DNA from: Escherichia virus TH44
Sequence record: MT446415.1
Length of the DNA: 64,000 nucleotides
Strand: one strand, 5' to 3'
Under the pieces are notes generated by a model. That model was not told the origin of the DNA. It did no database searches and was given only the letters and a program-made list of their open reading frames with translations. Shown in pieces: positions 2,428 to 59,409 of the stretch (within the stretch, counting starts at the first letter, position 1; each line of letters opens with the position of its first letter). Position numbers and translations under genes: made by a program.

Positions 2428-4458
2428 ATGAGTGTAGAAGTAATTTTGGTAACTAAGTACACTATACCTGAACTTATCCAAGCCGTTAATGAAAAACAAA
2501 CGGTTGGATATTTTCCTGCTTGTGGTGTTCTTTATTTTAATAATAGATTTACCCAATTAATGACCTTAGACACAAATGCTACAGAAGTTCCATCAGCACC
2601 TTATACCATAATAGCCGAACAAAACGGTGTTTTATGGGCGGAAGCCGCTTCAGCTTTTGTGGATGCAAATCCGACAGCAGAATGCTTATCACCTGTAGAA
2701 TATATAGATTCGCTATACATGCAAGCTTATGGGGACGCAAGGGCCGCATCCGGTGGCGGTTCGACGGGGCCTAAAGGTGATACCGGTCCAATGGGTCCAA
2801 TGGGTCCTCAAGGTATTCAAGGGCCAATAGGTCCAGAAGGTCCCCAAGGTTTAAAAGGAGAAAAAGGTGATACTGGTCCTCAAGGTCCTCAAGGTCCACA
2901 GGGAGTAAAGGGAGACACAGGAGCAACCGGTTTAACTGGGGCTGAAGGGCCACAAGGACCTATAGGTTTAACGGGCCCTAGTGGAGCCCAGGGTGTTAAA
3001 GGCGATACAGGTCCTCAAGGACCCCAGGGTTTGAAGGGTGAAAAAGGTGATACCGGACCGCAAGGCCCACAAGGAGAACCAGGCACCGGCAATGGCGGTC
3101 TGAAATGGTATACAGAAGATGCTGGTAAAACTTATCCTATTATAGATGTGGACCCAAATTTATCACAAATAGGAATGGGTAATCCAGATGGTGGATACGT
3201 CCAATTAAAATTTATGACCGGAGGCAATAACGCTGGACATATAATGGCTGATGATGGGACCATGACGTTATGGAAAACCCAGCAAAGCACACTCAATCTT
3301 TCGGATAACTCGGCAGCACTGCATAACCATGCCAACGTGGAACTTGCCAATGCTGACATGACGCTTAACATGGATGGGCGTGACTTGACTGTTAGTGATG
3401 TGGATAGTATTCGTCTCCAGCTCAATGCGGACAGAAGCGCTCTGGTGGCGCCGGCGGACGTTGCAAACGTGACAGTATCCACTGAAGGCACTGCACAGGT
3501 CATGGCTAATACTTACATCCAACTGAATGCAGTAAACAACAGGTCTATAATTCAGCTAGACGAATCCGCTATCACCACAAGGTCAGGTCGCTCAAACACT
3601 GAACTCACAGATGCTACATACCGTGCCAGTGCGCCGGACTTAGACGGCCGAATTTCGTTGACTCTGGGTCCGCATGCAAAGTTCCTGGCTACACCTACCA
3701 ATACTGCAATCAATTTTAGTAAAAGTACTGTAACAACCAGAATGCTCATGGATAGTACCGGGATAAACATTGAAACATTAACCGAGGCACCTGTGTTTAT
3801 ACGGAATGTCGATAAGGTGGTTTATACGGCTGATAAAGGTGTGGCTACCATTGGACGGGGTGATTATACACAGGTCGTTGACCAAACTGGGGTAGTAATC
3901 ACTACGGGTGCAGGTAATGTAAGCACTCAAAATGCCACTGGATTTATTAAAGACACTGCCGGCGAGTATCAGTACCGCATCGACAACAAATTGGTATTCT
4001 TCTCTAGTGGGGACATTACAAGAATTAACACAGATGCTTGTGGTGTTGAACTTGATAATGGTTCAGGCATTGCTTATAATAGTGGCACAGGCGAACATAC
4101 TTTTCTTGGCGGTAACGTAGCCCCAGGTGCGGCCAATATAAGTTTAGGTGGAGCTGTTGCTCCGTGGGCTTCAATTTATCTGGATAGTTCTACCCCACGT
4201 GTAATTCAGACCAACACGGCCCACGCGGAAGTCCCAGCTGCTACAATAGCTAAGATGGCTACACTTGTCCCACAAGCTCTGAACACAGCATCCGGTGGCT
4301 TCACAATGGGATATGTTTACGAGGATGTGATTGCAGCTTTAGGCGCCGTCGATGCTGAACTCTACGGGCTTGCATGGATGGAAGGCGGGAAGAAGGTCAT
4401 TAACCCTGTTGCAATACTTGCTATGGAGGCGTTATACGTTCGTAGTAAATTAGTCTAA
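2428..4458 (+). CDS. Collagen-like repeat protein (fibre-like), about 36 G-X-Y triplets plus large C-terminal domain
   Basis: 676 aa ORF with GGAGG RBS; residues about 112-225 are uninterrupted GPQGPQG/GDTGP Gly-X-Y repeats; inserted between hoc and rnlB-side small genes. Confidence 0.8.
   Translation: MSVEVILVTKYTIPELIQAVNEKQTVGYFPACGVLYFNNRFTQLMTLDTNATEVPSAPYTIIAEQNGVLWAEAASAFVDANPTAECLSPVEYIDSLYMQAYGDARAASGGGSTGPKGDTGPMGPMGPQGIQGPIGPEGPQGLKGEKGDTGPQGPQGPQGVKGDTGATGLTGAEGPQGPIGLTGPSGAQGVKGDTGPQGPQGLKGEKGDTGPQGPQGEPGTGNGGLKWYTEDAGKTYPIIDVDPNLSQIGMGNPDGGYVQLKFMTGGNNAGHIMADDGTMTLWKTQQSTLNLSDNSAALHNHANVELANADMTLNMDGRDLTVSDVDSIRLQLNADRSALVAPADVANVTVSTEGTAQVMANTYIQLNAVNNRSIIQLDESAITTRSGRSNTELTDATYRASAPDLDGRISLTLGPHAKFLATPTNTAINFSKSTVTTRMLMDSTGINIETLTEAPVFIRNVDKVVYTADKGVATIGRGDYTQVVDQTGVVITTGAGNVSTQNATGFIKDTAGEYQYRIDNKLVFFSSGDITRINTDACGVELDNGSGIAYNSGTGEHTFLGGNVAPGAANISLGGAVAPWASIYLDSSTPRVIQTNTAHAEVPAATIAKMATLVPQALNTASGGFTMGYVYEDVIAALGAVDAELYGLAWMEGGKKVINPVAILAMEALYVRSKLV
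2761..3095 (+). repeat. Collagen-type triplet (G-X-Y) coding repeat
   Basis: ggtcctcaaggtcc-type 9-bp periodic units encoding GPQ/GDT/GEK triplets. Confidence 0.8.
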
Positions 4459-45509: not shown

Positions 45510-45583
45510 GGCCCTGTAGCTCAATTGGTTAGAGCATCCGGCTCATAACTGGCAGGTTTCCGGTTCAAGTCCGGATGGGGCCA
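45510..45583 (+). tRNA. tRNA with CAT anticodon (Met by sequence; likely lysidine-type Ile as in T4)
   Basis: Cloverleaf folded by hand: acceptor GGCCCTG/TGGGGCC, D arm GCTC/GAGC, anticodon loop CTCATAA, T arm TCCGG-TTCAAGT-CCGGA. Confidence 0.8.
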
Positions 45584-45585
45584 CC

Positions 45586-45662
45586 CGGGGTGTAGCTCAA
45601 TTGTATAGAGCAACGGTCTTCTAAACCGTAGGTTGTGGGTTAGAATCCCACCACCCCGACCA
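45586..45662 (+). tRNA. tRNA-Arg (anticodon TCT), CCA encoded
   Basis: Perfect acceptor CGGGGTG/CACCCCG, D arm GCTC/GAGC, anticodon stem ACGGT/ACCGT with loop CTTCTAA, T arm GTGGG/CCCAC, 3' ACCA. Confidence 0.85.
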
Positions 45663-55494: not shown

Positions 55495-55986
55495 ATGAAT
55501 ATATTCGAAATGTTACGCATAGATGAAGGTTGTAAGTTGGATTTGTATAAAGATACCGAAGGCTATTGGACCATTGGTATCGGGCAATTGATAACTAAGA
55601 ACCCATCAAAAGATGTAGCTCGTGCTGAGCTCGACAAGCTTATGGGTCGCGTCTGTAATGGTCGCATAACCCAGCACGAAGCTGAAACATTGTTTAATCG
55701 TTCGGTCGAAAAAGCTAAAGCCGGAATCTTGAGGCATCCTGTCTTAAAACCTGTTTATGATGTACTGGATGAAGTTCGTCGTTGTGCGCTCATTAATATG
55801 GTATTCCAGATGGGTGTTGCCGGGGTAGCTGGTTTTCCTAAGGGTATGCGATTGCTGAAGGCTAAATCATGGGAAGCCGCTGCTAAGGAACTAGCTGACT
55901 CAAGATGGTATAAAGTCCAGACTCCGAATAGGGCAAAACGAGTTATCGAAACTTTCCGTACTGGAACTTTTGACGCATACAAATAA
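55495..55986 (+). CDS. e: Endolysin (T4 lysozyme e)
   Basis: 163 aa; [12 protein letters not shown]...[15 protein letters not shown] with Glu11/Asp20/Thr26; ...[12 protein letters not shown]...NRAKRVI..FRTGT.DAYK resembles recalled T4 lysozyme. Confidence 0.95.
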
Positions 55987-55994
55987 GGTAAAAT

Positions 55995-56264
55995 ATGAAA
56001 ACGTATCAAGAATTTTTGGCTGAATCTGTATTAAATGAATCAGATGAAAGTCGCATGGCATTTTTAGCTAAGAAAGAAGGCTTTGAGTTTACTTCTATTA
56101 AAAAAGTTAATGGAACTTCATTTAAAGTTGGTGATTGGACCTTTGGTAACAAAGGAAATGGCCAGTGGCAAATTGTAGATAAATCTGGCAAAGAAGTGGA
56201 TTATTTGTTTAATCAGAAATTGGGTGATATCGCTAAACTTATGGGTCAATACTCTAAGAAATGA
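55995..56264 (+). CDS. Internal-protein-like small protein
   Basis: 89 aa; N-terminus MKTYQEFLAES. Confidence 0.7.
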   Translation: MKTYQEFLAESVLNESDESRMAFLAKKEGFEFTSIKKVNGTSFKVGDWTFGNKGNGQWQIVDKSGKEVDYLFNQKLGDIAKLMGQYSKK

Positions 56265-56319: not shown

Positions 56320-56736
56320 ATGACTCGTATTAATTTAACCCTGGTATCTGAACTTGCCGACCAACATCTTATGGCTGAATACCGTGAACTTCCTCGCGTG
56401 TTTGGTGCGGTTCGTAAGCATGTGCAAAATGGTAAAAAGGTTTCTGACTTTAAAATCCCATCATCTTTTCTTTTAGGGACTGGTCATGTCACCTTCTTTT
56501 ATGATAAACTTTTGTTCCTTAAAAACCGCCATCAAGAACTTATTGCGGAATGTTTAAAGCGAGGGTTTAACATAAAAGATATTTCTACCCAGGATTTAAA
56601 TGATATTCCTGATGAATGGAAGAATGATTATCAACCATCAATCTGGTCAATTGAAATCAGTCAAGCCAGACTGAATGAGAAAATTTCTCAAAAGCCTACC
56701 TGGTACAAATACTATGGGAAAGCTGTGTACGCTTAA
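56320..56736 (+). CDS. denV: Endonuclease V (pyrimidine dimer DNA glycosylase/AP lyase)
   Basis: 138 aa; [35 protein letters not shown]...[10 protein letters not shown]...[10 protein letters not shown] closely resembles recalled T4 DenV. Confidence 0.95.
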
Positions 56737-56784
56737 TTAAAAAGGTTGTATAATGATTTTATCAACCAAACAATGGAATATAAA

Positions 56785-57048
56785 ATGAAAACTTATCAAG
56801 AATTTATTACTGAATCTGCCAAAGCTCCTGCTGGTTCTTTTAAAGTTCGCGCCTTCGCGGGTGATGCTGAAGACTTTGGCACCATGAAGCGTAACGGTTA
56901 TTCTTTCTTTGGCGGAGATGGTAAAGAAATTGTAACCTATGCAAAACGTCGCGAAATCGCATTTGTGGTTGCTGGTAAGAAAGTTGATGTTGACGATATT
57001 GAATGGGACTTTGAGACCTTTGGTATTGTTTCTGGCGGTAAAGCATAA
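56785..57048 (+). CDS. Internal-protein-like small protein
   Basis: Trimmed start MKTYQEFITESAKAPAGS; TATAAT promoter upstream. Confidence 0.7.
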   Translation: MKTYQEFITESAKAPAGSFKVRAFAGDAEDFGTMKRNGYSFFGGDGKEIVTYAKRREIAFVVAGKKVDVDDIEWDFETFGIVSGGKA

Positions 57049-57050
57049 CT

Positions 57051-57087
57051 GTTTACTTTATGATGGGATAGTGTATAATTATCCCAT
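57051..57087 (+). promoter_or_regulatory. Early promoter stem-loop cassette (PeSL-like)
   Basis: -35 GTTTAC, 17-nt spacer, TATAAT in loop of ATGGGATA/TATCCCAT. Confidence 0.55.
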
Positions 57088-57107
57088 CAACTACTGAGGA
57101 GAATAAA

Positions 57108-57305
57108 ATGTTAACTTATAAAGAATTTATGAAAGAAGTTAAAAAACTTAAAAAGACTTCTGGTGATGTTAAAATTGAAATCCATGGCCAAACCGTAAAT
57201 GCGGTAGCGGATGGTCAGGCATTAGTTCTTTATAGTGATAAAGACCAAGAATTTCGCGAAGCACAAAAGAAAAAATTTACCGTGTGGCTCAAAAAAGCTG
57301 TTTAA
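57108..57305 (+). CDS. Small basic protein with IP-like N-terminus (MLTYKEFMKE)
   Basis: 65 aa; GGAG RBS. Confidence 0.6.
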   Translation: MLTYKEFMKEVKKLKKTSGDVKIEIHGQTVNAVADGQALVLYSDKDQEFREAQKKKFTVWLKKAV

Positions 57306-57313
57306 GGACCAAT

Positions 57314-57613
57314 ATGAAAACTTATCAAGAATTTATCACAGAAGCCAAAGCCCCTAAAGCATTCCAAATTGGAGTCCAAGGCAATTTAGACCAACAATAT
57401 GTTGATGCTATTGTAGCAAGCCTCGGTAAACAGGGTGTACAAGTGGATTTGGTTGATTTTACTAAAGGCAATACTTTTAATATTGTCACATCTAAAGGTT
57501 CTTTAGCTAAAGTTAAAAAGGCCTTTGGTGTAGCACAAGCATATGAAATCGACCACTCTGAATTGGAAAATAAAGGTCGCCAGAACACAATTAAAGGTTC
57601 TGGTTCTTTCTAA
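57314..57613 (+). CDS. Internal-protein-like small protein
   Basis: Trimmed start MKTYQEFITEAKAPKAF; 99 aa. Confidence 0.7.
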   Translation: MKTYQEFITEAKAPKAFQIGVQGNLDQQYVDAIVASLGKQGVQVDLVDFTKGNTFNIVTSKGSLAKVKKAFGVAQAYEIDHSELENKGRQNTIKGSGSF

Positions 57614-57777
57614 TAAAGGCAAGCCGACCCTCTCCTCATGAACTTCGTGTCCTCTGAGTGATGGACCTTTCCCTACCTGTAATAAGGTCGAGCCCAAGTG
57701 CGGTAAAGGGTTTACATACGGATACATGGACGAATTATGTGCCAAGGAATGGCCCCACAACTTAAAAAGAGACAATT

Positions 57778-58323
57778 ATGAAAACGTTTTTAACCGGTAG
57801 TTATCTATCCCTGATGAATGCTTTTGCAAACCATTCTGATGCTAGAGTAGAACACATTTGTAATAGTGGGTTTTATGTACCCGATTCGCAAACCTTGTTT
57901 AAAGAATGTTGCACCTTAAAACTTGATGGTGGGCGCCAATCTGGTAAAACTAAAGCAGTATCCATTTTTGCTACGGAATGGTTAGCTGATGGCGGCTCTA
58001 TTGTTATTTTGTCTAATAACACGGCATATGCTAATGTTTCGGCTACTGCAATCCGAAAGGAATATTTTAATAACCATACAGAAAGTATTAAGCACCGCTT
58101 GTACACTGATTCTGTTCGTAGTTTTATTGGTAACACTGCATGTAAATTCCGTGGATTATCACTTTCACGGGTTCTGTATATAATTGATGAGCCTGTTAAA
58201 ACACCTGATATGGATAAGATTTATGATGCCCACATAAAGGTTGTGCATTATTGCTGCCGTGCATCATGTGAAGAAACCAATCAAACCACACGCCCTCTGT
58301 TCTTTGTGATAGGAATGCAATGA
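57778..58323 (+). CDS. Hypothetical P-loop protein
   Basis: 181 aa; Walker A-like GGRQSGKT. Confidence 0.6.
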   Translation: MKTFLTGSYLSLMNAFANHSDARVEHICNSGFYVPDSQTLFKECCTLKLDGGRQSGKTKAVSIFATEWLADGGSIVILSNNTAYANVSATAIRKEYFNNHTESIKHRLYTDSVRSFIGNTACKFRGLSLSRVLYIIDEPVKTPDMDKIYDAHIKVVHYCCRASCEETNQTTRPLFFVIGMQ

Positions 58324-58619
58324 TGACCCATGAAGAGCTTTTTGACCAAATCTATTTTATTCCAAAGGTTAGGTCAGAAGATTTCGTAAAGAATTTTGAA
58401 ATCTTTAATAAAGCAAATTTCTTTGAGTATGTGTTTTTGTCTGGGCCTTTTAATGGGTCCAGATTTCGTTGCACTGCTCCGAGTATTCGCTTGATGAAGT
58501 TGGTTCCTTACTTTACTCTGGAATTTATTTCTGGACCGTGTAAGGGTATTATCACTCGTAGCCTCCTGACCTATGACCAGGATGTGCGATTAATTAGTGA
58601 CTGGAAAAAATATGTCTAA
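58320..58619 (+). CDS. Hypothetical protein
   Basis: 99 aa overlapping previous stop. Confidence 0.5.
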   Translation: MMTHEELFDQIYFIPKVRSEDFVKNFEIFNKANFFEYVFLSGPFNGSRFRCTAPSIRLMKLVPYFTLEFISGPCKGIITRSLLTYDQDVRLISDWKKYV

Positions 58620-58826
58620 ATTGACTATTGAAGGTTCTGATGCAGCCCTGAAAAGATTTGTTGAATGGTTTAATGGCCCAGGTGAACAAGACTTTCTGGA
58701 AGTCTGGAACGGTGGACAGTGGAATGGTAAAGAAATAGTTTACCCAACTACCTATATCTCCGTGCAAGGTTGGACTGAAGGCCTTCGTTTGGTAGAATAT
58801 GATATCGCAACTGGCGAGGAAGTGAA

Positions 58827-58830
<4 letters not shown>
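58612..58830 (+). CDS. Hypothetical protein
   Basis: Trimmed start MSKLTIEG; 72 aa. Confidence 0.5.

Positions 58831-59409
<579 letters not shown>

Follow-up and report, generated by a model that had tools for sequence, protein, structure and literature searches.

A conserved, very probably folded RNA element in a long spacer of a T4-type phage recurs in unrelated virulent enterobacterial phages

Phage T4 encodes two non-coding RNAs of ~120-140 nucleotides (nt), rnaC and rnaD (species 1 and 2 RNAs), which are co-transcribed with tRNA genes on the same strand. In the hyperplastic regions of T4-type genomes, the PeSL (Promoter-early stem-loop) cassettes, reportedly described by Arbiol et al. 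in 2010, are said to form conserved non-coding modules between small genes. The put RNAs of phage HK022 are ~70 nt long, fold into two adjacent stem-loops and act on intrinsic as well as Rho-dependent terminators with no protein factor (PMC9378689). Finally, a csRNA catalogue built by comparative genomics comprises 10,006 phage structured RNAs (PMC10690425). The element described here resembles the motifs of this catalogue and the families of Rfam in being defined by conservation and covariation in intergenic DNA, and it is classed among the orphan structured phage RNAs, a known kind in which it forms a new family, the catalogue being compared by description only. Like the PeSL cassettes, it is a conserved non-coding module between small genes of T4-like phages. 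The neighbouring AT-rich spacers of the window, i.e., the whole 64,000-nt stretch of DNA that was analysed, contain TATAAT boxes and resemble PeSL cassettes. Unlike these cassettes, the element carries no promoter, is GC-rich, displays a covarying multi-helix fold and also occurs outside the T4 superfamily. Its position recalls the slot of rnaC and rnaD in Phapecoctavirus, in locus L098 and in N4-like phages, where it is found in or beside a tRNA array. However, there is no sequence or structure relationship to these RNAs: the T4 copy is located ~6 kb away from them, in the denV-vs.8 spacer at ~64,800-64,935 of NC_000866, and the covariance model of the element (R1, see below), run with filters off over T4 67.4-74.5 kb, reached 8.4 bits at best.

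The window belongs to a JS98-type (Dhakavirus-like) phage of the T4 family. It carries the lysozyme gene e (55495-55986), denV (56320-56736) and an internal-head-protein gene (phrog_2667; 57314-57613, with its TAA stop at 57611-13), followed across a gap by a vs.8-family gene (phrog_1488; 57778-58323, ATG at 57778) with a weak P-loop/terminase-N-like match. A first-pass annotation had described the 164 nt between this stop and this ATG (57614-57777) as an unusually long non-coding gap, richer in GC than its neighbours and devoid of a credible forward ORF or promoter cassette, and the description holds. The other spacers of the cassette region measure 8-59 nt, and the GC content of the gap is 0.47-0.51 versus 0.28-0.34 in the adjoining AT-rich spacers. 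Only two ORFs occur in the gap, a 35-aa GTG ORF (57658-57765, + strand) and the reverse-strand ORF overlapping the upstream gene that had already been pointed out, a 90-aa TTG ORF (57503-57775); neither matches PHROGs or Pfam and neither is conserved among homologues. No credible promoter precedes the element and no terminator-like site is found in 57600-57800, so that both hallmarks of an Hfq-type sRNA with its own promoter and intrinsic terminator are missing there. Promoter-like matches in the region stay at shuffle level (11 versus 9.6), and one weak sigma-70-like match (57711-57738, 9/12) falls within the element itself. Of the two explanations originally offered for the gap, a structured small RNA or the remnant of a deleted gene, the first is favoured by deep conservation, by compensatory changes affecting two helices and by G-U pairs, from which the strand follows, and the gap very probably holds a conserved folded RNA element rather than a gene remnant. 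In the surrounding cassettes, the genes at 55995, 56785 and 57314 begin with MKTYQEF(L/I)(A/T)E, the capsid-targeting signature of internal proteins, and a 65-aa ORF at 57108 with no PHROG match begins with the variant MLTYKEFMKE.

The element as a whole spans 57615-57753 on the + strand and consists of a core (57615-57710) and a 3' extension (57711-57753). The core is built as a stem-loop, P1, abutting a three-way junction of P2, hairpin A, hairpin B and an invariant GUAA, the two domains being separated by 0-1 nt. In the P1 domain (57615-57670), an outer stem of AAAGG (57615-19) and CCTTT (57666-70) encloses P1a (CTCA 57635-38 / TGAG 57655-58) and P1b (GAAC 57640-43 / GTCC 57649-52). The junction is closed by P2, whose 5' strand CCCT (57671-57674) pairs with AGGG (57707-57710), and contains hairpin A (57675-57688; ACCT, loop GTAATA, AGGT), hairpin B (57689-57702; CGAGC, loop CCAA, GTGCG), the pairing register of which is ambiguous, and GTAA (57703-57706) as its sole unpaired strand. 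With P2 at four pairs, the junction strands thus measure 0, 0 and 4 nt, a "perfect" junction; the GTAA is invariant save for ATAA in L059, and a total of ~28 nt, located in the junction and the two short hairpins it carries, do not vary between unrelated phage families. A bulged G in the 3' strand of P2 is conserved in most other phages, and the window sequence is able to pair continuously. The T4-like phages, including the window, display an enlarged P1 insert and the added 3' extension, which comprises a tentative P3 (ACATA 57714-18 / TATGT 57736-40), an invariant ATGGA (57726-57730) and a tentative P4 hairpin (GCCA 57741-44, loop AGGAA, TGGC 57750-53). Outside the conserved fold, the element is adjoined by a variable tail (57754-57780, + strand) with the ribosome-binding region and ATG of the vs.8-family gene, differing in sequence and length among homologues.

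The fold was assessed by covariation across related phages, as had been proposed in the first-pass annotation. A four-helix model was scored on a plain MAFFT alignment (A2) of 23 sequences from all phage groups, in which 95.8% of cells were paired versus 19-47% in slid controls and 8 pairs showed compensatory changes. The covariance model R1, built from A2, recovered 73 copies of the element (61 distinct) in the fetched loci, and a further alignment (A6) was fitted to the model. For the 61 distinct sequences, a three-pair P2 model gave 95.6% of cells paired, with five P1 and three P2 pairs covarying, and the final model 95.9% versus 30-51% for slid partners. Compensatory changes occur in 10 pairs, nine of which make up P1 and P2 completely. 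The covariation score of 0.467, compared with 0.164 in shuffles, was reached by 0 of 500 shuffles, a count that is not a probability, as the sequences are related by descent. The outer stem of P1 (95.7% of cells paired, compensatory changes in 5/5 pairs) appears as AAAGG/CCTTT, AAAGC/GCTTT, GGGAA/TTCCC, GGGAG/CTCCC, GAATG/CATTC, GAGTG/CACTC and GGAAC/GTTCC. RNAalifold found this stem, again with compensatory changes, on 17 T4-like sequences, and independently recovered P1 and hairpins A and B. By eye, one P1a pair is missing altogether from L027 and L058, both of its partners being deleted (CTCA to CT-A, TGAG to T-AG). All four pairs of P2 covary, with CG, GC, UA, AU and GU represented. The innermost one, formed by the nucleotide that precedes hairpin A and the N in GGTAA-N, came from a mutual-information scan and is absent from the alignment model; its composition is AU 39, UA 12, UG 6 and CG 2, with none unpaired. 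At the level of the aligned sequences, the closing helices P1 and P2 are shown to be free to change as long as their pairing stays.

The two inner hairpins vary far less. The stem of hairpin A is invariant in 60/61 distinct sequences, variation being limited to loop positions 3-5, and its sole change, GCCT/AGGC in the second copy of L054, is compensatory. In hairpin B the flanks are constant and the loop varies, one model has a pair that switches between G-U and G-C, RNAalifold favours a GC/GC pairing, and divergent copies retain a 3-bp hairpin at this place (GCC-CGC-GGC, GTC-CGC-GAC and GCC-TTTT-GGC). As both stems scarcely vary, their pairing rests on one compensatory event and the divergent copies. 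G-U pairs are frequent, e.g., in 42/61 sequences at one hairpin B pair, and the + strand is regarded as fixed because of these pairs and because the element is co-oriented with neighbouring genes. The folding energy of single sequences is no better than that of shuffles (z ~0 on both strands). The 3' extension is conserved among T4-like phages and missing from the other groups; a covariation test gave P3 and P4 no statistical support, and P4 reads GTCA/TGAC in phage FBB1 (by eye). Several other pairings were set aside. An ACC/GGT extension of P2 is incompatible with the GCGATAA of L059 as well as with the GCCT/AGGC change seen in L054, and PG7-type and N4-like sequences do not accommodate P2 in the 0-register. 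Judged by eye, pairing of GGG with a CCC tail past P4 is unsupported in PG7-type sequences. Also by eye, the 3' tail of N4-like phages, AGGUUAGU, forms eight perfect base pairs with ACUAACCU only in Pylas, this complementarity decaying in L007 and L098.

Searching 57600-57800 with blastn revealed 988 phage records, 204 of them with a coverage of at least 80%, and the conservation begins at the 5' edge of the gap, which with so many records is far from chance sequence. Within the T4 family, holders include Tequatrovirus, Mosigvirus, Dhakavirus, Gelderlandvirus, Karamvirus, Roskildevirus and Klebsiella T4-like phages. Beyond it, a 39-nt core, CCAACCTGTAATAAGGTCGAGCC(C/A)AAGTGCGGTAATGGG, is near-identical in phages with no other similarity: the Vequintavirus phages CarlMeissner and A142, Phapecoctavirus DE16, the N4-like Klebsiella phage Pylas (MH899585), the 44.9-kb phage Ivi and several groups of IMG/VR and metagenome contigs, including 47-kb contigs. 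The minimal conserved unit is ~70 nt long (69-76 nt). Present in T4-like, rV5-like, phi92-like, N4-like and smaller virulent enterobacterial phages, the element is shown, as far as sequence comparison goes, to be mobile between unrelated virulent enterobacterial phages. In the window, R1 has a single significant match (57615-57714, 97.8 bits, E ~7e-20 for the 64-kb window). A second, weak match at 3132-3205 on the reverse strand (14.1 bits, E 0.39), which lacks the invariant core, is most likely due to chance. Karamvirus-like contigs carry a second, diverged tandem copy ~35 nt past the first (34-39 bits; L018 9103-9179, L054 5093-5168 on the reverse strand and L094 445-521), and it is these second copies that supply the only compensatory change in hairpin A as well as an alternative form of hairpin B.

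The element is taken on the same kind of comparison to be not host-derived, because neither it nor the 39-nt core has a blastn match in 5,426 E. coli genomes and bacterial hits occur at chance number. A degenerate-pattern scan of bacterial genome contigs gave 19 matches against ~17 expected by chance (our own arithmetic, for 18 fixed bases in 1.2e12 positions); none of them runs on into GCGGTAA, the 3' half of the core being missing. In six MAGs of Hyphomicrobiales/Xanthobacteraceae (L032, L034, L036, L045, L046 and L048), the pattern by chance hits another block, ACCTGTCAAAAGGTCGAGCGTAAGGGTTGTGGGACAAGTGTGGCGATTTCAC, which has no GCGGTAA and is unrelated to the phage element, yet is a conserved, non-coding-looking stretch in its own right. 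A perfect copy of the core is present at 100820-100858 of CP057073.1, an E. coli "plasmid" in PLSDB, the size of which (137,565 bp) suggests a Vequintavirus genome deposited as a plasmid. Full-text literature searches with the core sequence returned no paper, and those on vs.8/denV and T4 small RNAs nothing relevant.

The genomic surroundings of the element differ between phage groups. In most T4-like phages it ends 12-25 nt before the ribosome-binding site of vs.8, in Klebsiella phages an internal-protein gene follows, in Vequintavirus a sigma-70-like promoter and then an unrelated ORF, and in Phapecoctavirus and L098 tRNAs. No flanking protein is shared across phage families, as the sole cross-family "protein" matches are translations of the element itself. 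With differing downstream genes, no common flanking protein and diverged tandem copies, the element can therefore be considered autonomous. It is always on the strand of the neighbouring genes and tRNAs, and in T4-like phages it sits at the edge of the hypervariable internal-protein locus. Association with tRNAs recurs in several groups. In DE16, whose array comprises ten tRNAs, the element occupies a central place flanked by tRNA-Thr and tRNA-Gly; in L098 a tRNA-like gene called by ARAGORN ends 18 nt ahead of it, and another tRNA-like sequence follows ~25 nt downstream (by eye); in Vequintavirus and the 47-kb contigs tRNA-Arg(UCU) follows 200-570 nt downstream; and in Pylas the element comes after a tRNA array, between tRNA-like units. 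A preceding tRNA is 18 to ~700 nt away. In T4-like phages the tRNA genes are located 6-12 kb upstream, so the association is not universal. The only tRNA genes that ARAGORN finds in the window, an adjacent tRNA-Met(CAT) and tRNA-Arg(TCT) (45510-45662, + strand), precede the element by 12 kb, share its strand and represent the same pair that adjoins it in the 47-kb contigs. The tRNA-like units flanking the Pylas copy (L009 10420-10745) are not called by ARAGORN; at least the downstream one has a T-arm-like GGTTCGATTCC, and each is closed by a ~19-bp leader/trailer stem (CACAACAG...GCATTG / CAGTGC...CGTTGTGG) that looks like an excision stem for unusual tRNA-like RNAs. In Vequintavirus, the repeated motif CCCnTAGAGGGCTTGAnAGTGC flanks the element on either side in L013 (521-545 and 640-665), is present once upstream of it in L002 (2428-2455), and could be a processing or binding site.

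Comparison with known RNAs yielded no relative. An Rfam scan, also proposed in the first-pass annotation, found none of the 4227 families of Rfam 15 in the gap (cmscan of 56500-58900 with permissive filters, E up to 10); three chance-level matches all fell outside it. ARAGORN detected no tRNA or tmRNA in the gap and never called the element a tRNA in the other loci. Compared with E. coli 16S, 23S and 5S rRNA and three tRNAs by RNAduplex and local alignment, the element did no better than shuffles and so gave no sign of complementarity or mimicry. A CsrA sponge was dismissed, the four GGA motifs in 140 nt being near expectation by our own count.

The best explanation, with a probability of roughly 0.45, is an autonomous structured RNA that is recognised via its invariant junction and perhaps released as a stable small RNA. 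The gap would thus encode a self-contained RNA module read on the + strand, co-transcribed with its flanking genes and, in other phages, with tRNA arrays; excision from these transcripts may yield a stable small RNA working in trans, either as a decoy or as a binder. That a ~70-nt fold with so many invariant positions is exchanged among unrelated phages would point to a specific and important partner common to their infections. The junction may serve as the recognition surface for a macromolecule present in all of them, most likely a conserved component of the enterobacterial host. Action in trans by a stable RNA binding such a shared factor can be put forward tentatively. As the neighbourhoods are tRNA arrays and anti-defence loci, the choice of target leans towards tRNA- or RNA-directed host functions or defences, yet a tRNA- or defence-related target as such is rather unlikely. 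It could also be speculated, doubtful as this is, that the element represents a new class of mobile phage RNA, present even in T4, whose junction would attach directly to a conserved host machine and either disable it or redirect its activity; the element might then act as a decoy for a defence nuclease directed at tRNA or RNA, or modify RNA polymerase in the manner of put, with no protein involved. If so, unrelated virulent phages would be exchanging, along with their tRNA arrays, an RNA-only module for counter-defence or takeover, and a partner that is a host defence or core host enzyme would make the element a compact RNA tool and an addition to the few RNA-based takeover and anti-defence mechanisms. 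At a minimum, gene models are corrected and RNA databases gain an extra family. T4 is among the best-annotated phages, yet the element is unannotated in almost every record carrying it, and public records have no annotation over it under nearly all matches.

Among the alternatives, the one that survives best, although unlikely, is a cis-acting nascent RNA that binds host RNA polymerase and suppresses pausing or termination like HK022 put, which would sustain transcription through untranslated tRNA arrays and long early operons with no protein factor. The element shares with putL and putR a length of ~70 nt, two abutting domains, the lack of a partner protein gene and a place within operons of enterobacterial phages (PMC9378689). 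Moreover, the window copy lacks both a promoter and a terminator of its own, the element is co-directional with the untranslated tRNA arrays and often upstream of or inside them, and its invariant core would suit binding to a highly conserved host enzyme. However, instead of a simple stem the second domain forms a branched three-way junction, some copies are placed midway through a tRNA array or past its end, and tandem duplicates are not expected of such an RNA. N4-like phages, which also carry the element, rely on polymerases of their own to transcribe much of the genome. R1, run with filters off, found no match in the immunity region of HK022 (27.5-30.5 kb; best 8 bits), this stretch between IS903 and gene O being taken from the annotation to hold both put sites.

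A leader regulating the downstream gene in cis, here vs.8, as a translational operator, a metabolite aptamer or an mRNA-stabilising 5' structure, is quite unlikely. The short distance to the vs.8 ribosome-binding site in most T4-like phages fits such a role, as does the T4-like extension (P3/P4 with the invariant AUGGA), which abuts that site, and a junction with invariant unpaired nucleotides resembles the cores of aptamers. This role is difficult to reconcile with the changing downstream partner, be it an internal-protein gene, a promoter with an unrelated ORF or tRNAs, among which no common protein is found. In addition, no Rfam riboswitch matches (E up to 10), and no conserved alternative pairing offers an expression platform, the candidate examined failing in PG7-type sequences (by eye).

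It is improbable that the element is a self-cleaving ribozyme or a dedicated RNase processing signal separating the units of polycistronic transcripts or tRNA arrays. It does sit between tRNAs in arrays that need processing, small ribozyme cores typically display such a compact junction rich in invariant nucleotides, and in all families P1 follows a single-stranded stretch rich in A/U, resembling RNase E sites (by eye). Yet none of the Rfam ribozymes (hammerhead, twister, twister-sister, pistol, hatchet, HDV-like) matches, the junction, judged by eye, differs from the hammerhead core in its strand lengths (0, 0, 4) as well as in sequence, and a processing signal would have to operate at very variable distances from the preceding tRNA.

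Conserved spacers can promote the exchange of cassettes, as with the PeSL cassettes, and the T4-like copies border a hypervariable internal-protein locus, which would suit a signal acting at the DNA level, either a recombination hotspot for internal-protein cassettes or a protein-binding or replication site. This is highly improbable for an element whose helices covary for pairing on one strand with many G-U pairs, and which is common to phages with unrelated replication and packaging systems. A role as the T4 replication origin oriE was discarded, since oriE is located elsewhere in the genome, near repEA (PMC3016281).

Scarcely credible, finally, is a protein-coding origin, be it a decayed gene, a small peptide or a true N-terminal extension of Vs.8 as in the T4 annotation: in many phages the core is covered by an open frame that would read PVIRSSPSAV, and some records annotate small hypothetical ORFs over the element, but stop-to-stop openings vary from 14 to 81 codons with no frame conserved on either strand among 67 homologues, one-base indels occur within the invariant core (GCAA-TGCGG versus CCAAGTGCGG), core variation strikes the first and second codon positions of the putative frame (ATA, AAA, GAA, GCA), and PHROG and Pfam matches are lacking. 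The decayed-gene reading is accordingly rejected, and with it the suggestion that the gap is what remains of a deleted gene. A mini-ORF, GUG-CGG-UAA, was likewise dropped, as its start codon is not conserved (GCG, GAG). Intact ORFs in homologous regions had been named in the first-pass annotation as a sign of such decay, and nominally one exists: the T4 RefSeq record gives vs.8 219 aa (L025 1754-2413 on the reverse strand, i.e., NC_000866 64253-64912), lengthening the gene by 39 codons across the element. However, among 36 distinct homologues this frame runs in phase into the downstream gene in T4 alone and is elsewhere closed by a stop or out of phase, and for this reason the first 39 codons of T4 vs.8 are probably a mis-annotation; RB32 annotates the short form. 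The T4 copy is thus hidden beneath what looks like a mis-called N-terminus, the CDS starting at an ATG in the loop of the inner hairpin of the element and spanning all of it. In Klebsiella phage phi1_146043 (L026 1175-1333, reverse strand), a 52-aa "hypothetical protein" is called on the reverse strand across the element, and this too is probably a spurious gene.
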